DNA of 64,000 bases from Heptranchias perlo (Eukaryota). The position numbers and the translations under genes are program-made. The stretch spans positions 19,902,001-19,966,000 of the forward strand of contig NC_090350.1 of assembly GCF_035084215.1 (NCBI RefSeq), given 5' to 3'. Positions 5,171 to 64,000 of the stretch are shown one piece after another; within the stretch, counting starts at the first letter, position 1, and each line of letters starts with the position of its first letter. Below the pieces are notes generated by a model, which saw only the letters and a program-made list of their open reading frames with translations, was not told where the DNA came from and made no database searches.

Positions 5171-6769
5171 AATCCAGCTGGCGTCTCTAACTTGCAATTG
5201 TTGGATTACACGCACTAAAGATCAGTCCCCTTTCAAGTTCCAAAGCGTGTGACCTTCAAAGCTCTTGAACATTTATTAAGCAGTATTTTTACTAGTGCAT
5301 TAGTAGATATTATAAGACTTTAAAAGCTGTAAATATATTGGGATTGGTTTTCAATTTGCTGCTCTGACGTGAAACTAGCGTTTCCATGAAACGAAATCAG
5401 GTGGTGTGTAAAACGGGCGGCCAACTCGCTTTGCCCGTTTTTGCAATCGCCCAGGACGAATTTCACCCATAATGTGTTTTTGTGACATTCCTCGGTCCAC
5501 ACTTTTGTCACCTCCATCCTGATTTCTCCAACACCTTCCTTAATGTCCTCAAACGCCTCACCCTACATAAACTGCAGCTCCTCCAAAACTTTGCTGCTTG
5601 CATCCTGTCCTACATCATCCATGTCCTCACCAACCCAATGAGAGAAACTTTCACTAATTAACCTCAGTACTATTTAGGCTACTTCCCCACAGGGAGTACC
5701 TGAACCAATGACTTCAAAAGTTCAGGCCAATTATACAGATAAACAATGCAACTATGCCCCAAACTACCCATAAGCAACAGCACGGGAAATCAACTAGTTC
5801 TTAAAGCAAAGAGATATGATGTGGAGAGCCTGAGGGTTGCACATTGACGCTTGATGTAATGTGGGAGGAGGTAGCCCATTTTGGGTCCAGACTTGGCGCT
5901 GCTGAGGCAACGCACGTCCAAAGACGGAGGCCCGAGAATTGTGAACAATTGGTCCTCGGGCCTTTTCTAGATATTCGGGGTGAGCTGCCAGCACCGGTCA
6001 CACCTCCATAGGTAGCTCGCCTGAGGAAAGGCTTCAAATTCAGGCCGTCTCTTCGCCAGCAGCGGCCCTCAGATAAGGGGGGGGGAGTAGACAACGGAAG
6101 GGGGGCGATCGCAGCCGGCAGGAGTTGTGTGGTGCCAGGGGTAGCACTAAAAGTAAAAAAAAAAGAAAATTTACATTCCTTTTCAGTCACATCCATATCC
6201 AGAAAACCCGAGCAGGTCCAAGACCTGCTCCACCCAGGACAGCCCCATTTCTGGAAATGGTCCTTAAATTGGCATTAGGCCCCTCATATGGAAGATGCCT
6301 GACACCTGTTTTAGCCGGCCACCCCGGACACCGGAAAAATGGTCCAACCCAATTTCAATTTTCAGGGGTTTCTGGGGAGCAGGACATTGCGCCCCGAAAT
6401 TGGTCCTTTTTGCGCTCGTTTTAAGCCTGTCCAACAGGCACAATGAGGACCAATTTCTACCCCGGGATGTGCAAAGGAAAACATACAAAGCTGGTGCCCA
6501 GGTGTGGGCCCTGAAGGAGGCACAGAAACAAAGGCTGGATACTTATGTGAACATACTGTAGAAGCAGGATATTAAGGAGAGGGCGGAGGAGAGATCAGCT
6601 GTAAGGAAAGAATGAATGATACTGAAGTAATGACATGAGAAAGAGTCACCTGTGTGTGGAAACAGAGACAAGTTATGGCAAGCAGATTACAATGTACAAG
6701 GCTCATAGGACAGTAACTGGCCAGGTTAGATTTGTTCAGCTTTTTGTGAATAGGACATCCCTATGCAAT

Positions 6770-10683: not shown

Positions 10684-10934
10684 AATATGTTAATCTTTGT
10701 CTTTTAAGATATCAGATGACCTGTTTTGCATTCCCAGCATTTTTATTTCAGATTCCCAAGCATTCATGGTCTTTTTAATCTAAGCTTATGAAGCAGTTCT
10801 TATTCAAATACTTTCTTTTATAATCAATTCAAGAGTCGCCTTCAGGAAAAAGTGTTTAGAATGCATACATAGTAACAGTCATTGTAGCTAGGTTATGTTT
10901 CAAAGCACCAAAGTTTTCAATTGTAAGATACAGC

Positions 10935-11805
10935 TTGAACACGTACATGATGGACGTGCTCTCCAAAATGGGGTTTGGGGAGGGAATCCGCAATTGGATC
11001 CAACTGCTCTACACAAACATCAGTAGCGCCGTTTCAATCAACGGGTGGGAATCAGAAAGCTTCCCGATCAAATCTGGAGTCAGGCAGGGCTGTCCTCTCT
11101 CCTCTGTCTTGTTTGTGTGCTGCATCGAACCCTTTGCCGAGTCCATCAGGAGGGATGCGGGCATAAGAGAGGTGACGATCCCAGGCAGCGGAGGCACTCA
11201 GGTCAAGGCCTCCCTGTACATGGACGACGTTGCCGTCTTTTGCTCGAATCAGCTGTCGGTCCGCAGATTGATGAGCATCTGCGACCTGTTCGAACTGGCC
11301 TCAGGGGCCAGGGTAAATCGCACCAAGAGCGAGGCCATGTTCTTTGGGAACAGGACCGACCGATCCTTTGTCCCCTTCATTGTCAGGTCGGATTACCTGA
11401 AGGTGCTGGGATCTGGTTCGGGGGGGCCGGGGCGTGCACCGAAAACTGGAAGGAGCGTATTTCTAAGGTGAAGCAGAAATTGGGACTGTGGGATCGATGA
11501 TCCCTCTCGATCGTGGGAAAAAACCTGGTCATCAGGTGCGAGGTGCTCTCGGTGTTGCTGTACTTGGCACAGGTCTGGCCCATACCTCGCTCCTGCGCCG
11601 TGACAGTCACCCGAGCCATCTTCCGCTTTATCTGGAGATCAAAAATGGACCGTGTCCGCAGGGACACGATGTACAAATCTCTGGAGAAAGGGGGGAAAGG
11701 CGTGCCCAACGTGGCCCTCATCCTGATGGCCACTTTTGTGTGCGGCTGCATCAAGCTTTGCGGGGACCCCTGGTAAGAAAACACAAAATGTCACTACGTG
11801 CTGAG
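10935..11805 (+). mobile_element. Tx1-like (L1 clade) non-LTR retrotransposon RT fragment
   Basis: Motifs SGVRQGCPLS and ASLYMDDVAVF, then GKNLVIRCEVLSVLLY...GGKGVPNV; frameshift near 11410 and in-frame stops; GC-richer than the flanks. Confidence 0.85.
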
Positions 11806-56062: not shown

Positions 56063-57758
56063 GGGCTAGCAATTGGGCAATGTAGCACCCGTTGCTTTGG
56101 CGCTACGCGGCCACCCGAACATCCAAGATGGCGTCTTGGCTGCATATGCACGTTTCCAGCGTGACGTGCGCCGGACGCCATCATGGTATAGGTATCAGCG
56201 CATGTGCAAATACCGAATGCCGCAGCATGTAATGTAATGAGAAAATGGATACAATCAGTGTGCAACGCTGATTTAGAGTGATAGACACCATTTTGGGACT
56301 TAACGCTCAACTCAATGCACAGTCTTAACTACGACCATCTGAACATGTCTTCGAGTGCTTGGAGGACCCCCTTCCCACCACTGCTATTTAAAGGGACCAT
56401 GCAGGATTTACAGTTGCTGGGTTACTGCTTCTGGCTGCCGATACATTTGTAACTATTTTTGGAGGTCTCCTATACTTGAACACCAGGCCACAGGGACATA
56501 GCCTAACATTTAGAGCCAGGACGTACAGGAGTGAAGTTAGGAAACGCTGCTACATGCAAAGGGCGGGAGAAGTTTGGAACAGTCTTCTGCAAATGGCAGT
56601 TGATGCTAGCTCAATTGTGAATTCTAAATCTGAGATTGATAGATTTCTGTGAACCAAGGGTATTAAGGGATATGGGGCTAAGGCGGGTATATGGAGTTAG
56701 GTCACAGGTCCACCATGATCTCACTGAATAGTGGAACAGGCTCAAGAGGCTAAATGCCACTGCCACTTGCTGCCTCCTGATATGCACCACCTTCTCCTGC
56801 AAGAAAGCGGGACATGTGTCTGGGTGATGTGCCTGTAATGGTTGAATAGCTGCCAGTGTGTGTGGCCTGTGAGTTGTGGGTGGGTGGCTTGCAACAGTGG
56901 TAATGTGTAAGGGTGAGAGGAAGCATCTGATTGGAAAAGTTGAGTACTGATGGAAAGAGTTTGTTGGTAGGTGGGTGATGGGGGTGTAGTGCATGGAGCA
57001 GTGGATGTGGTTAGTGGTGTAGTTGGTAGGAGACGCCACTTGACAGTTGACCTCACCGTTTGACCACTCGTAGCAAAGCATTGAACTTCTTCCTGCACTA
57101 CATCCATGTTCATGATGCTGTGCGCCTGGCATTGACTTCGTCCCCCGCTGCCTCCCATTGCCTTTTGGGCATATGTCTGGAGGGCCTCTTGCCCCTCCCA
57201 CCCCCCGCGGATAAACAATGTACCTCCTTCTGTCCACCTCTTGCACCAAGGCCTCTAGTGCATCAGCAGAGAACCTTGGTGCATGCACTCTCACAGGCCT
57301 GGTATAAACTCAGATCGGCAGATTGGTGAGGTCTGGCGAGCAGATTGGAGGATGTGGGATTTAGTGGTGCGCAACCTTTATTTAATGTTTTAACATAACT
57401 CATTGGTTTGTAAACATAGGGACGGGACCTGCTTTTGCCTTTTACATGTGCGATGTCTGATCTTCTTTCAGACTCTGTGCAGACAGCAGACTGTTATTTT
57501 TAGCAAATGCAGGTTCTGGCTATCTTTAAGAGATGTTAAGAGAAATCCTTTCTTTAAGAGATTGGGGATCCACTTGCTGGCGGAAAGTGCAAATTGCATT
57601 AAATCCTCATGTCAATGCTGATTTCCAATGCTGCTTGCAGGTAAGTCCTCAGGCTGGACGAAAGACTCGTCCTGCCTGCGCGGGGGCCGTCGGGCGTGGG
57701 TTAATCATGGATCATGATACCCGTGCCTGATAATAGGCCTTATCGAATTTTTCCCCAC
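56063..57758 (-). mobile_element. Harbinger-group transposon remnant with a Myb/SANT-like gene and a nested CR1 3' fragment (about 56505-56755)
   Basis: ORF 56611-57294 begins HAPRFSADALEALVQEVDRRR; termini match 28005-29407; ACT at 56060-56062 and 57759-57761. Confidence 0.8.
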
Positions 57759-58642
57759 ACTGTGTTCACTGTCTGGTCTGTGCTGAGTTTGCCAGTCTCA
57801 GTTGGGAAAGCAATAGGGACGGGCAGCACTAAAATTGCCCTTAGTCAGCCAAGGCTCCTGCTATTGATTGTTCTCCAGTGAGCCCTGCTGGAAAGTGTAT
57901 GTGTATGGACATCACATGAGGACAACATTGGGCCTGACTGTGATTCTCTCCTCCAGCCTCCCACAGGTGAATAGCCTGTCGACATTTTCCATCCAGGCTC
58001 ACTAATGAAGAATGGCCACTTGGACAGGGTAGTGAAGGGCTGCTATTGGCCGTGGGACATCAGTGGCTTCAGGAATGGAATGGTAAGGGGAGAAAGTTGC
58101 AGCAGCAAAAAAAAAACACAGCCGCACAGTAAGCGGTAGTAACTGATTGTTAGAGACAGTTTGGATGTTTCCTACATTTGTATGTAAAGATACTGCGGAG
58201 AGATAGTCAGACAGATAGATATTCTTTCAACCATTGAAAGATCTAAACTAAGAATTTGACATTCGCAGAACACGACAATTAAGATCACAAACGCTTAAGC
58301 CTGATCTGACTTGGTTGACGAGCAATAACTTACATACATTCAAACAAGGAAAAGCAGCTACTTTGGACTGACTGCCGAGTATCAGTTAAAGTGGGGGTAG
58401 GTTTCTCTGTGGGCTGTCTATCATTAAACTGTAAAAGTGCTCTTTGCAAATTTGACCTCTCAAATGGCCCATCTTTCTCAGTATTTGTGTATTCAGGAAA
58501 GGTTGTGTTCTTTTCCAGCTTTTGTATTCATTTTCTTCATTGCAGAATAAAATGTGCAGCACAAAGGAGAAGAATGATTGCCAGACTTTCTGCAGCACAC
58601 GTACAGGTCATATTAATTTTGTTCTCTACAGTCATTTACTCT

Positions 58643-58848
58643 GATGTGGAGATGCCGGCGATGGACTGGGGTGGACAAATGTAAGGAGTCGTACAACACC
58701 AGGTTATAGTCTAACAGCTTTATTTGAAATCACAAGCTTTCGGAGGCTTCCTCCTTCATCAGGTGAAGGAGGAGCAAAGCTCCGAAGGCTTGTGATTTCA
58801 AATAAAGCTGTTGGACTATAACCTGGTGTTGTACGACTCCTTACATTT
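58643..58848. mobile_element. Short Penelope-like fold-back element with a minus-strand hammerhead motif (58730-58766)
   Basis: Same gatgtggagatgccgg tail as 12219; inverted arms from about 58677 to 58848; the minus strand reads tcacCTGATGAaggaggaagcctccGAAAgcttgtga. Confidence 0.8.
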
Positions 58849-59182
58849 CTCTATCGCTGTAACCTTTTCCAGCCCGTCAACACTCCATAAACGCTGTGTT
58901 CTTCCAGCTCTGCCTCCCGTGCATCCCCCATTCCCTACATCCCACCATTGGTGGCCGTACCTTTAGCCGTCTAGGCCCTAAACACTGCAATTCCCTCCCT
59001 AAACCACCACCTTCTTCTCCTTTAAGACCCTCCTTAAAACCCAGCTCTTTGACCAAGCTTTTAGTCACCCCTTCTAATATCTCCTTCTTTGGCTCAGCGT
59101 TGATTAGTGAATAATTACGCTTCTGTGAAGTACCCTGGGATTTTTTTTCTATGTTAAAGGAGTTATATAAATGCAAGTTGCT
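58849..59182 (+). mobile_element. L2 3' fragment
   Basis: Aligns with 3775-4090. Confidence 0.7.
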
Positions 59183-59997
59183 CTTCAGGCTGCCATCGAA
59201 GCATCAGCAACATCAGCCAATCTGCAGTGCACAGATGTTCCCACTTGGTGGCAGTGTGTGCTGTTGTGCCCAACAACCGAACCGAGCACTTTTTCGAGAT
59301 GTGCCTCCAATGAATGTCATATATGAGGCCACGTACCACTGGTTATTTGTGAGAGCCTTTTGGGACTGATGTGCCCCTCAACCTCTGTGTACTGGCTTCT
59401 GACATGGCCCAGCTACTGGCTTCCCATTTTCCCAGCTGTAGCATGTGTCACCTATACAATCATTGGAAGGGGTTAGGGATAGGCGGTACAGTTTTGGACT
59501 TTTTCCAAAGATATATTTCTTTGTGCTCAGTGCCAAAGACTATTTCCATAAGCAAGGTCTCACTCTTGTGAACCATAATTTAAAGGCAGCCAGTGCCTCC
59601 AGCAAATTGCTGGCAGCTCCGGCAAAGAGATAGCACAGAAACGACGGGCCAAATGACCTCCTCTAGGTCACCCATCCTAATTTCTCCTTCTTCGGCTTGG
59701 CATCCATTTTTTTCCTTATGCCTCTGTGAATTGCCTTGGGATATTTTTCTACATTTAAGGCAGCAGATAACTGCAAGATGTTGTCGTTGCAAACATTTGT
59801 AGTTTTATGGAGAATACCTAAACCTGTAAAATTTCTAGGTAATTGGAGTGAGCCTAAGGATTGAACAGAAACATGAGTCGCTATTCGCCTCACTGGATAT
59901 AACATGTGCCCTCACATCCTCTCTTTGGCTTCAGAAAGCAGTGGAATAAACTCGATCAGAATGTGAGATTGGCCATAAACTATCAAATGGACTTAAT

Positions 59998-60970
59998 GGG
60001 CTCGATTTTCGCACCCACGATCGGGTGCGTTCGTGGCGGGGGTGGGGGGGCTGCGAAAATACGGGATTCCCGGGGCGGGTCCGGAGCCCGGCTCCAACCC
60101 GCCCACTTCGGGTTCCTCAGTGACACGCTCACATGCGCGCGCAGCCCCCGCATGTGGGACTCCCGCCGGCAATTAAAGCCAGCGATGCCACTTAACGTAC
60201 TTAAACAGGTACTTCTGGTTGTTTACAGACCTGATTGACCTGATATTTTAGGAGGGATCGGATTTTGAAATTAACTGAGACCGTTTCCCGTACTGTGGGA
60301 AACACTCCCAGTTCAAATGGATGTGTTGCAACCATCAGCCTGTGGCAGCTGCAAAGGTCCATTTGACAGGTGGAGGGGGGAGACCCTCACTCATTGCAGG
60401 AGGCCACTCTGTCACTTTGGACAAAGTTTGGCCTCCACCACCCTCCTCCTAACAATCAAATGCATAAACTTGCACACTTACCCCGGTGTCCAGACACATT
60501 TACCTACCTTGCGGACCCCCTCAAACTTCCGGATGGGGGCCGCCGCAGCTGCAGTCATGACCTCCTCGGAGGGCGAACAGCACGACCAGCCTTGCCGGCC
60601 ACGCTGTCCACCTCTGACACGTGGAGCTCCACAACACAGTGCTGTGACACATCCACCTGCACAGCAGGAGGCAAGGCAACCGCAGAGAGAGATGCGTCGC
60701 AGAGGGCACTACCCTCGCCACAGGGTCCACAGACCGAGGCTCAGCTTCCTGGACCTCTCTGAGCAGCAGTGCACATGGAGGCTCAGAGTCACTCGACATG
60801 TAGTCGTGGACATCTGCAGCCTCCTTCATGCCGAGCTGCTCCCACCTGGCCCGAGCACCATCTTCTTACCTGTCGCTGTCAAAGTCACCACTGCCCTCAA
60901 CAACTTCTCCTCCGCATCCTTCCAGGGCGCCACTGGGGACATCGCTGGCGTCTCTCAGTCGTCTGCACAA
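59998..60970 (+). mobile_element. Truncated Harbinger transposon with an N-terminal HARBI1-like transposase fragment
   Basis: ORF 60317-61063 contains RLSFLDLSEQQC.WRLRVTR...VKVTTALNNFSSASFQGATGDIAGVSQSS; left terminus gggctcgattttcgc preceded by AAT; no catalytic DDE region or right end seen. Confidence 0.8.
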
Positions 60971-61238
60971 GACTTCAGCACTACAGCCGGGATGTTGTTG
61001 GAGCCCATAGCCCTTGCTGTATCCAGTGCACTCAAGCATTTCTTGATATCACATTCTAAGTGATCAAAAATGTTAAATTAAGTCATCTTATTGTTCAAAC
61101 CTCTCACTAATATCACGTGTTGTGATTTTTCTTTCAAAGAATGTGAGGTTACAAGCTCAGGCTCAGTTATTCAGGGTGCTGCTGGTGTGCCTGGAGTACC
61201 AGGAAAACCAGGAATGAATGGGCTGGTTTGAAAGGTAT

Positions 61239-61239
61239 G

Positions 61240-61272
<33 letters not shown>

Positions 61273-61274
61273 TA
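61239..61274 (+). repeat. (TA)n microsatellite directly after a splice donor
   Basis: Seen directly in the sequence. Confidence 0.95.
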
Positions 61275-61656
61275 TTTTCACCCACCCCCACTTTTTCTTT
61301 AAGCTATGCCTGTAATTAATACTTGCAGTGATTGCTTCTCAAAGTGAATACTAATAACACAGACTTACTATTCCAAATGCTGAATGAGATGAATGACCAA
61401 TTAACCTATTGAGGGATGAATATTGTCCAGGAGACTGGGAGAATCGTTGCTTTGGGAATAGTGATGTGGAATTTTCAATGTCCAGCTCAATGACTGGAAC
61501 AGGGAGACAGAGCTTTGGTTTAATGTCCCGTCTAAAGGTGAGCATTCCTCATAATGCAGCACTCTCAGTTCTGAGGCTTTGTTAACTTTGCTAATTCTAT
61601 TTTGGAATAACGTCAGAAAGTTTCAGAAAACCATGTAGAAAGGAGCAAAGAAAGTG

Positions 61657-62065
61657 TCAGCTTGGCTCAGTAGATAGCACTTTCGTCTCTAAATCACAGG
61701 TTATCGGTTCAAGCTCCACTCCAATATCTAAGCATATAATAGAGGCTACACTCCAATGCAATATTGAGGAAATGCTGGATTGTACGAGATGCTGTCGTTC
61801 AAACGAGATGTTAAAACGAGGACCCGTCTGCCTGTTTCAGTGGTTCAGGTCGATGTGATGTTAAAGATCCCATTGCAATATTTGAAGATGAGCAAAGTTC
61901 TCCTCAGCAGATTAACTGGTCATTCATTTCAGTGGGATTAGTGAGATATTGCTGTATCCAAAATGGCTGTTGCATTAACAACATAACAACAATCACTGGC
62001 TTCAAAGTAATTCATTCAATGGGAAGCACAATGGGATGTGTCCAAGAGATATGATAAAGTGCAAA
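61657..62065 (+). mobile_element. Diverged tRNA/Deu-type SINE
   Basis: tggctcagtag and ggttcaagct boxes; similar to 55403-55838. Confidence 0.7.
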
Positions 62066-63505
62066 TTTGATAATTGGATGATAATATCTTCATTTGAATG
62101 GCAACTCTGTATGGAACAAGTTTTAGTTAATTTTGCAGCTACTGATCATTGAGATGAGTTCTAAGGTAGTTTCTGAATCGAAATGAATTGAGTCAGATAT
62201 CAGATTTATCCAAATAACTCACTTTTCAAGAGTTGGATTTCACATCCTTAAAGTCTGAGTTTTAATTTTTTAGAATTCAAACTGTTCAGATCCATAAAGA
62301 GAAGATTTGAAGAGTCCAACTTACATTATAAAGCTTGGTTGTAAGGTGTTTTCGGACGTTCTGAGATTGTAAAAGACGCAACATAAATGCAAGTTCTGTC
62401 TTCCTAAAGTAAATCCTCATTGTTTTTAACATTTGTTACAGGAGATAAGGGTGCTCCCGGGACACCTGGGAAAGCTGGACCAAAGGGTGAAAAGGGGGAA
62501 AGAGGTAAATATTTGAAGAAAAAACTTTGTTCAATAAAGCCTGAGTAGTAGAATCAGTTCAGGGACCTCCTCATACCATAAACAATTCCGAATGTGTAAC
62601 TACCATTAGAGATATGTGGAATAAGTCATAAATCCAATTTTACATCAAATATTACATACAAAAGTATCATTAAGATATTCAGATGCAGTGAACCAATATG
62701 AGACCAGCTTTTGTGTAAACCAGTTATTATAAAAGTGTCTGGTTATGTAAGGTGACATGTTGTGTTGTAAAACACTGAGAGGTATTGACAAGCTGCTGTT
62801 GTTCACACAGGGGAAAGTGGCACTTCTTACAATTGTGATACAGGTAAGTTTCAGAAATATCAATGGGACCAGGACTCTTCCCACTCAGCTCCAAAAGAAC
62901 CTGGAAGCCGATGCTTTAATAAATAGCATGGTCCTAACTGGACAAGCACTGGGAAGTTTACGGGTGTTCTCTGTTGATAACCTGTACGGTTTTAGCTAGA
63001 TAGATACCCACAGTACCTCGACACACACTGAAGAGTCTCTAAATATTGTCATTGCCAAGTTGCAGCTAAATTCTCTGGATTTAGGTCGGTGACGTGTGTC
63101 CCTACAGGGACAGATGATGCATTCCACAACAGGCAAACGGAAACATTAATTATGTGGATTTCTCAACAGTTAGATTTGGAGTCTCTTAAACATAGTGGGT
63201 TTCTGCATGTGGCTAATCAAAAATAGTGTATATTGGACTAAAGTTGGCCATAGAACATTAAAATAATGTATATTAGATGGAGGTAAATTGAATATATCTG
63301 ACCTTAGGTGTCAGGAAATGTAACGATTTGCAAGACAGGGGAGTAACATTGAGTGGCTGGTACCTCATATACCAGGAAAACTGCAACTCACTAACTGTGT
63401 TCTGTGATATGGACACAGATGGGGGAGGATGGCTGGTGAGTGAATAACTTCAGTTTCTTTGGATTTCCTGGTGATACTGTGTGAGATGTTGGGGTGAAAT
63501 TTAAT

Positions 63506-63845
63506 CCCGTTATACACCCCGCCCGTTATACACCCCGCATGTTATACACTCCACCCATTATACACCCCACATGTTTTACTCCCCGCCCGTTATACACCCC
63601 GCATGTTATACACTCCACCCATTATACACCCCACATGTTATACTCTCCGCCCTTTATACACCCCACATGTTATACTCCCCGCCCTTTATACACCCCACAT
63701 GGTATACACCCTGCCCGTTATACACCCTGCCCGTTATACACCCTGCCCATTATACACACCGCCCTTTATGCCCCCACCCGTTATCCCCCCTGCCTGTTTT
63801 TCTCCCCCCCCCCCCCCCCCCCGCCCCGTTATACTCCCCGCCCGA
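63506..63845 (+). repeat. Minisatellite with units of about 17 nt (cccgttatacaccccgc / catgttatacaccccac)
   Basis: Seen directly; accounts for the repetitive ORFs at 63494, 63571 and 63603. Confidence 0.9.
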
Positions 63846-64000
63846 TTTTCCTTTCCATTTACTTCATTGTGGGCCTATTCGTGCCTCCCATTCTGTGCCC
63901 CCACCAAAGTCCTGTAATCAATGTATCATGCTGGATCATACAATATGGCTATTTATATTTTAATCCATTTAGTAATAAAAGGTAGACTACTATATTGTAT

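Follow-up and report, generated by a model that had tools for sequence, protein, structure and literature searches.

The window examined here is a stretch of 64,000 nucleotides from the sevengill shark Heptranchias perlo (C29:19902001-19966000). Near its downstream end it holds the first five exons of a ficolin gene, hereafter copy A, whose exons 6-8 lie open 3.2-5.6 kb past the window end (C29:19969250-19971556). A further 200 kb downstream were also mapped, and the coordinates of the gene copies continue the numbering of the window. Ficolins circulate in the blood and mark microbes for attack by complement; they are secreted as oligomers, attach to acetylated surfaces of microbes and switch on MASP-2. 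A preliminary description, made from the letters alone, had proposed a ficolin-like gene of a probable cartilaginous fish, and the host is indeed a shark. The features of copy A within the window are as follows.

58574..58647, plus strand: remnant of exon 1, signal peptide, MIARLSAAHVQVILILFSTVIYSD
58648..58860, no strand: palindromic interspersed repeat that replaces ~124 nt (end of exon 1, its donor and start of intron 1)
61140..61234, plus strand: exon 2, encoding the Cys-bearing N-terminal region and the first stretch of collagen, 95 nt, AG..GT
62442..62504, plus strand: exon 3, 63 nt, open, with seven Gly-X-Y triplets that include the MASP-binding motif PGKAGP
62811..62843, plus strand: exon 4, 33-nt neck exon with a Cys, open
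63290..63307, plus strand: exon-5 acceptor, shortened by 11 nt of pyrimidine tract behind 63303 (alignment to copy C)
63308..63435, plus strand: exon 5, 128 nt, first fibrinogen-domain exon, open, PF00147 E 3.9e-09

The exon order and phases of copy A are repeated in three neighbouring copies, which argues that these exons are not chance open frames. On re-inspection, the four exons noticed initially, the TGA at 61229-61231 and the clash of phases were all as described, and the other three of those exons (3, 4 and 5) proved open. The exon at 61140, described as the first collagen exon, is present; it is actually exon 2, exon 1 starting at 58574. It reads CEVTSSGSVIQGAAGVPGVPGKPGMNGLV up to the TGA, and is entered in phase 1 and left in phase 0, whereas exon 3 requires phase 1. 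Exon 3 of copy A differs from that of copy C at 0/63 nt and from that of copy F at 1/63, exon 4 differs from both at 0/33 nt, and exon 5 differs from both at 8-9/128 nt.

The first of three lesions in copy A lies in exon 1, which aligns with exon 1 of copies C, E, F and G and follows the neighbours' signal exon for ~24 codons before the alignment ends and the palindromic repeat begins. In the neighbours this exon is 97 nt long and matches the N-terminus of the sawshark ficolin P0021; in copy A its final 8-9 codons and phase-1 donor are missing. Homology between copies A and F ends at 58644 and restarts at 58839; the inverted arms of the repeat (58665-58761 and 58764-58860, 97 nt) match at 88%, and related pieces are found at ~10 other places in 264 kb of surrounding sequence. 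Read through into the repeat, exon 1 meets a stop after 36 codons. The consensus-like donor candidate in this read-through, at 58681, lies inside the repeat and in phase 2, and the sole phase-1 GT, at 58671 (GGG/GTGGAC), is poor. The evidence for this lesion is the assembly sequence. An out-of-frame ATG stands at 58552 in copy A where the neighbours have ACG.

The second lesion is a 19-nt deletion in exon 2 near 61219-61222, between two GGG runs (alignment to copy E); without it the exon would be 114 nt long. The neighbours read GIPGSKGVGLKG at the deleted place, and thus the 4-nt restoration suggested beforehand (GLPGLKG) does not correspond to what was lost. The position between GGG runs would fit a microhomology-guided deletion. 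One Cys is found in exon 2 of copy A, compared to three in copies C, E and F and two in the sawshark and copy G. The third lesion is the shortened acceptor of exon 5, where the neighbours' form appears as an 11-letter insertion in the contigs of 3/4 DNA runs, while an X1 contig spans 63266-63386 without a gap in the window's (deleted) form. Copy A has no single open frame with usable splice sites from signal peptide to stop, and a full-length ficolin cannot be made from its own exons.

The tandem ficolin cluster

The first fibrinogen exon has seven more matches in the genome; six lie in the 95 kb that follow the window and one is at 11.74 Mb. The cluster comprises at least seven whole or partial tandem copies.

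58574-69556, plus strand: copy A, the window gene, broken, at the cluster edge
near 73950, inverted: copy B, a lone exon 5
near 82400-82800: exon 6-7 fragment with a stop
93502-106793: copy C, complete, 30 kb beyond the window
near 109700, inverted: copy D, a lone exon 5
120493-125646: copy E, which ends after exon 5
140055-149044: copy F, complete, 76 kb beyond the window
~162056-154300, inverted: copy G, exon 6 of 131 nt, exon 4 not followed by GT, no match to exon 8
C29:11732878-11748553, minus strand: second ficolin locus, outside the cluster, 8 open exons, RefSeq ficolin-1-B-like, 343 aa

Each of copies C and F has 8 exons with GT-AG borders and 322 codons without a stop, and five of the seven copies are broken or partial. 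C and F possess the signal peptide and N-terminal cysteines of a ficolin (a hydrophobic 32-codon exon 1 and Cys 34, 40 and 45), which copy A does not. Their collagen exons stand in phase N-terminal to the fibrinogen exons, a condition that holds in copy A from exon 3 on only. The collagen of C and F consists of 9+9 triplets around a Gly-Val-Gly break, located in exon 2 (L012:1920-2051, L016:8381-8512) ahead of the MASP site and missing from the sawshark. The number of GVP triplets differs among copies C, E and F. An extra Cys in the fibrinogen domain of copy C is common to copy A. The exon-6 donor GTCATT (L012:6804, L017:3253), which is unusual and weak, is common to C, F, G and the exon 6-7 fragment, and copy A has GTAATT; the intron that follows contains a 4.2-kb insertion in copy C and is otherwise 78 nt long.

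Identity between copy A and copies C and F is patchy, ~84% near exon 1, 98-100% in exons 3, 4 and 6 and 92-94% in exons 5 and 8. This pattern suggests conversion or unequal exchange, which may be why the later exons of copy A still look fresh. Tandem clusters of immune lectin genes are known to evolve by birth and death. The shark cluster shares with them whole, truncated and inverted copies side by side, duplicated 11-kb blocks (96-97% identical upstream of C, E and F) and patchy identity, and there is no difference in kind. It may have grown by unequal crossing-over and may be losing its copies singly.

The ficolin at 11.7 Mb is divergent: it reads SGKIGP instead of PGKAGP (Ser for Pro), carries six extra residues ahead of the last Cys pair and is without a DND stretch. 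Three RNA-like runs of the same sample, tissue not stated, were aligned to copy F. In an X5 contig, exon 6 shows 13 differences from F, the number that separates the 11.7 Mb gene from F, and 6/6 listed positions agree; in an X6 contig, 16 differences fit the spliced exon 6-7 junction of the 11.7 Mb gene (12+4) and not its intron (12+7). Judged from counts on these two contigs, the 11.7 Mb ficolin appears to be spliced, at a junction inside the fibrinogen domain. RNA runs were absent from those listed as containing 61000-63500, which says nothing about expression of copy A. No exon piece or joint of C or F was found among the 24 pieces and 15 joints listed, of many more, for the runs on F, and no collagen-fibrinogen splice joint of the cluster was among the joints listed from these three runs of unstated tissue.

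Human FCN1/2 lie in the COL5A1-OLFM1 interval. The shark cluster differs in that it is not in a COL5A1-OLFM1-like interval, as 0/21 OLF and 0/71 COLFI matches fall on C29. This contig carries a MAP3K5/6/15-type gene and a CD164-type gene, which are presumably of the kinds that neighbour human FCN3. No flanking gene was identified in the 58 kb upstream and ~100 kb downstream, and the Pfam matches among 49 frames selected from several hundred were confined to reverse transcriptase, endonuclease and integrase (4/49). On one strand ~30 kb past copy G (L021:9493-9774 minus; L022:3999-4160, 5429-5587 minus) there are a Cys-rich frame that ends in CCNTTLC, a second frame rich in Asn-X-Thr/Ser and a hydrophobic leader; the group has no Pfam match and looks like a Ly6/uPAR-type gene. 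Within the window, broken reverse-transcriptase frames of a LINE-type element (PF00078) occupy 10860-11500. A GC-rich, very high-copy repeat lies in intron 1 at 59990-61050 (contig depth >500,000 at 60900-61073), has a relative in intron 6 of copy C and looks like a Harbinger-type element. A tandem repeat with a ~16-nt unit and the core TTATACACCCC lies in intron 5 at 63500-63850 and is also found in C, E and F.

Family assignment and database records

In a tree of 48 fibrinogen domains over 215 columns, in which 40 database rows were picked from 268 proteins and squamate venom-labelled rows and mammalian FCN3 were not included, all 36 ficolin rows, those of sharks among them, formed one branch at 100/99. 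Copies A, C and F grouped with two sawshark proteins at 96/82, and these with lungfish and one coelacanth protein at 96/92, apart from the genome's own FIBCD1, MFAP4, tenascins and angiopoietin-like genes, all of which fell outside the ficolin branch. Against PDB, the RefSeq model of copy F scored 344-366 bits with ficolin-1/-2, 268 with ficolin-3 and 214-219 with tenascin-R, MFAP4 and FIBCD1; its identity to the solved ficolins is 70%. The fibrinogen domain is identical to that of human FCN1 at 147-154 of 216 residues. PGKAGP is present in A, C, F and sawshark P0021 and is identical in human FCN1; passages of PMC3179595 and PMC2592599 describe this type of motif as the MASP-binding motif, and its lysine is essential (PMC3179595). 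PF01391 scored 18-24 bits on the truncated RefSeq models of the cluster, below its curated cut-off of 27.2. The tree, the PDB scores, PF00147 and PGKAGP together bear out the ficolin call that was made from the exons.

The signal peptide, Cys-bearing N-terminus, PGKAGP collagen and neck Cys are also shared by the vertebrate ficolins compared (human FCN1 and FCN2 and the lungfish, coelacanth, gar and sturgeon models). The sevengill genes differ from these in that copy A is broken and C and F have the Gly-Val-Gly break.

RefSeq has three ficolin-1-like proteins of Heptranchias perlo that correspond to copies A (XP_067863042.1), C (XP_067863090.1) and F (XP_067863091.1), and a ficolin-2-like protein of the sawshark Pristiophorus japonicus is also in the databases. 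The locus of copy A and two of its neighbours are therefore not overlooked in databases, as had been thought possible; the preliminary description had itself reasoned that annotated shark orthologues would remove the novelty, and the RefSeq labels do so. It should be noted that these labels are automatic. Copy A is rendered protein-coding by a repeat-derived first exon:

56128..56185, plus strand: first exon of the RefSeq model of copy A, MASWLHMHVSSVTCAGRHH, no signal peptide, within a repeat

The stretch 56147-56756 matches repeats elsewhere in the region, and this first exon is likely a modelling device by which the broken exons 1-2 are skipped. The RefSeq models of C and F start inside exon 2 and are without the signal peptide and the N-terminal cysteines.

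Three protein database searches gave 1624, 2167 and 1820 matches, of which the best 120 were taken in each. Cartilaginous-fish rows among these best 120 numbered 3, 4 and 3, queries included, and all belonged to Heptranchias perlo or Pristiophorus japonicus, with chimaeras, rays and galeomorph sharks unrepresented. None of the 17 unnamed rows among the matches listed was closest to a shark protein. These results hint at a squalomorph-only distribution of ficolin, as far as the best 120 matches and current annotation reach.

Fate of copy A and of the cluster

We interpret copy A as a broken duplicate at the edge of the tandem cluster and a likely pseudogene, with its role covered by C, F and the further ficolin on C29, and put the probability of this reading at roughly 0.85. 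Over exons 3-8, dN/dS was 0.86 for A-C and 0.90 for A-F, compared to 0.46 for C-F, and the excess of amino-acid change in copy A was not significant at the codon level (14:4 vs 11:7, Fisher p 0.47). Relative to the sawshark, the fibrinogen domain of copy A carries 7 unique changes, and 5 of these affect residues that the sawshark and human FCN1 have in common; C has 2 and F has 1, none at such residues; some private residues of copy A are the ancestral state common to the sawshark. A transcript of copy A, if made, would meet an early stop and be degraded, and the shark probably tolerates the loss of this copy thanks to C, F and the 11.7 Mb gene. With the frames of C and F complete and another ficolin gene present on C29, one duplicate is dying and not the family. 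Of the two readings offered originally, an overlooked ficolin or one being lost, the second thus holds for copy A itself, as a likely pseudogene, and finds no support for the family, nor does the first.

That the whole cluster is decaying, with C and F open merely by recency and the lectin pathway served by the 11.7 Mb ficolin, by other lectins or not at all, is in our judgement unlikely. The proportion of broken or partial copies (5/7) and the weak exon-6 donor and collagen break of C and F agree with it, as does the omission of exons 1-2 from the RefSeq models of C and F, which may reflect thin transcript support. However, the C-F dN/dS of 0.46 and the absence of changes unique to C or F at sites common to the sawshark and human FCN1 point the other way, and the cluster joins full-length orthologues of the sawshark at 96/82. 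The GTCATT donor, moreover, is also found in the older copy G, and according to passages of PMC2592599 MBL normally has a Gly-X-Gly break before its MASP site.

It is improbable that copy A yields a shortened protein, i.e., a short-collagen ficolin without N-terminal cysteines made by skipping of exon 2 or from a new first exon. Exons 3-8 are open with the motif intact, RefSeq models a 272-aa product and the phase-1 GT at 58671 would let exon 2 be skipped in frame, but the RefSeq first exon lies in a repeat and lacks a signal peptide, the donor at 58671 departs far from consensus, and copy A also has a damaged exon-5 acceptor and changes at conserved residues. Recent conversion or duplication would be expected to leave exons 3, 4 and 6 nearly identical to those of C and F, as they are. 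One 162-nt contig of an RNA-like run, at depth 2.1, has 9 differences from F, the number expected for the last exon of A (7 for that of C); this lone low-depth contig matches by count only and may be DNA carry-over.

We consider it highly improbable that the lesion of copy A arose in assembly, or that the gene is polymorphic and the lesion marks just one of its alleles. There is an AT microsatellite 12 nt from the deletion, and all DNA reads came from one sample, possibly the source of the assembly. In the contigs of 4/4 DNA runs, however, 61005-61231 was covered in the deleted form at a depth of 10.4-12.3 with 0 other letters and 0 gaps, so that the frameshift is not a consensus error. The preliminary description had pointed to reads around 61215-61235, and within that one sample the frameshift is confirmed through 61231. 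No second A-like allele was present among 12 of the 16 indel rows, the depth of 8.5-10 over 61161-61247 agrees with a single contig, and the same copy bears two further lesions. Finally, an MFAP4- or FIBCD1-like gene beside unrelated collagen exons, which shares nothing but the fibrinogen domain with what was found, is refuted by the tree as sampled and disfavoured by the PDB scores, by the location of FIBCD1 (C34:33.8 Mb) and MFAP4 (C40:5.85 Mb) elsewhere in the genome, by the in-phase collagen and fibrinogen exons of C and F and by the single chain that holds both domains in the sawshark models.

MASP genes and the lectin pathway

A CUB search, in which 150 of 305 candidates were scored and 16 candidate regions were examined, identified two genes for putative partners of the ficolins.

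C35:24760995-24785853: MASP-2-like gene, ten exons in CUB-EGF-CUB-CCP-CCP plus protease order
C13:800454-877808: MASP-1/3-like gene, CUB exons

The MASP-2-like gene has all the domain exons, whose order was read by eye from single, unjoined exons. Its protease is a single open exon of 266 aa with His, Asp and Ser in place, and its best match is MASP-2 (241 bits, vs 197 for C1s); the CUB2 exon taken alone does not separate MASP-1/3 from MASP-2 (101 vs 97 bits). On C13, no MASP-1/3 protease exon was found in 70 kb, minus strand only, and the gene may extend further.

Passages of two reviews state that cartilaginous fish have yielded no ficolin and may have no lectin pathway (PMC6795676; PMC6015906), in line with the absence noted in the preliminary description, and one of the two describes MASP-2 as missing or without its protease in the cartilaginous fish studied. 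Ficolins were not identified in the hammerhead shark, according to a passage of PMC6015906, and passages of PMC13337447 do not address shark ficolin. The main text and one supplement of the elephant shark genome paper mention neither ficolin nor MASP, and no publication that reports a shark ficolin was found in a search that was thin on subscription journals.

Copy A alone is likely an ordinary pseudogene, and RefSeq has a label for it already. Secretion as collagen trimers and disulphide-linked oligomers is predicted for the intact ficolins, whose fibrinogen domains would bind acetylated microbial sugars; MASP-1/3 and MASP-2 may dock on the lysine of PGKAGP and start complement. The open-frame ficolins and MASP-2 of this genome suggest that some sharks likely keep an immune pathway that has been reviewed as possibly absent in cartilaginous fish. 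We lean slightly towards the view that a ficolin-MASP-2 lectin pathway dating back to the first jawed vertebrates still works in squalomorphs (sevengill, sawshark), that the absences in chimaera, skate and galeomorph sharks are separate losses in the species studied, and that the cluster makes such loss visible copy by copy.

The cluster and MASP-2 contradict a repeated statement of the reviews and make the absence testable, with the genes and species for testing it now named and three RefSeq models corrected. If this view is true, ficolin and MASP-2 would have been present in the jawed-vertebrate ancestor, and the "absence" of the pathway would become a matter of lineage-specific loss.
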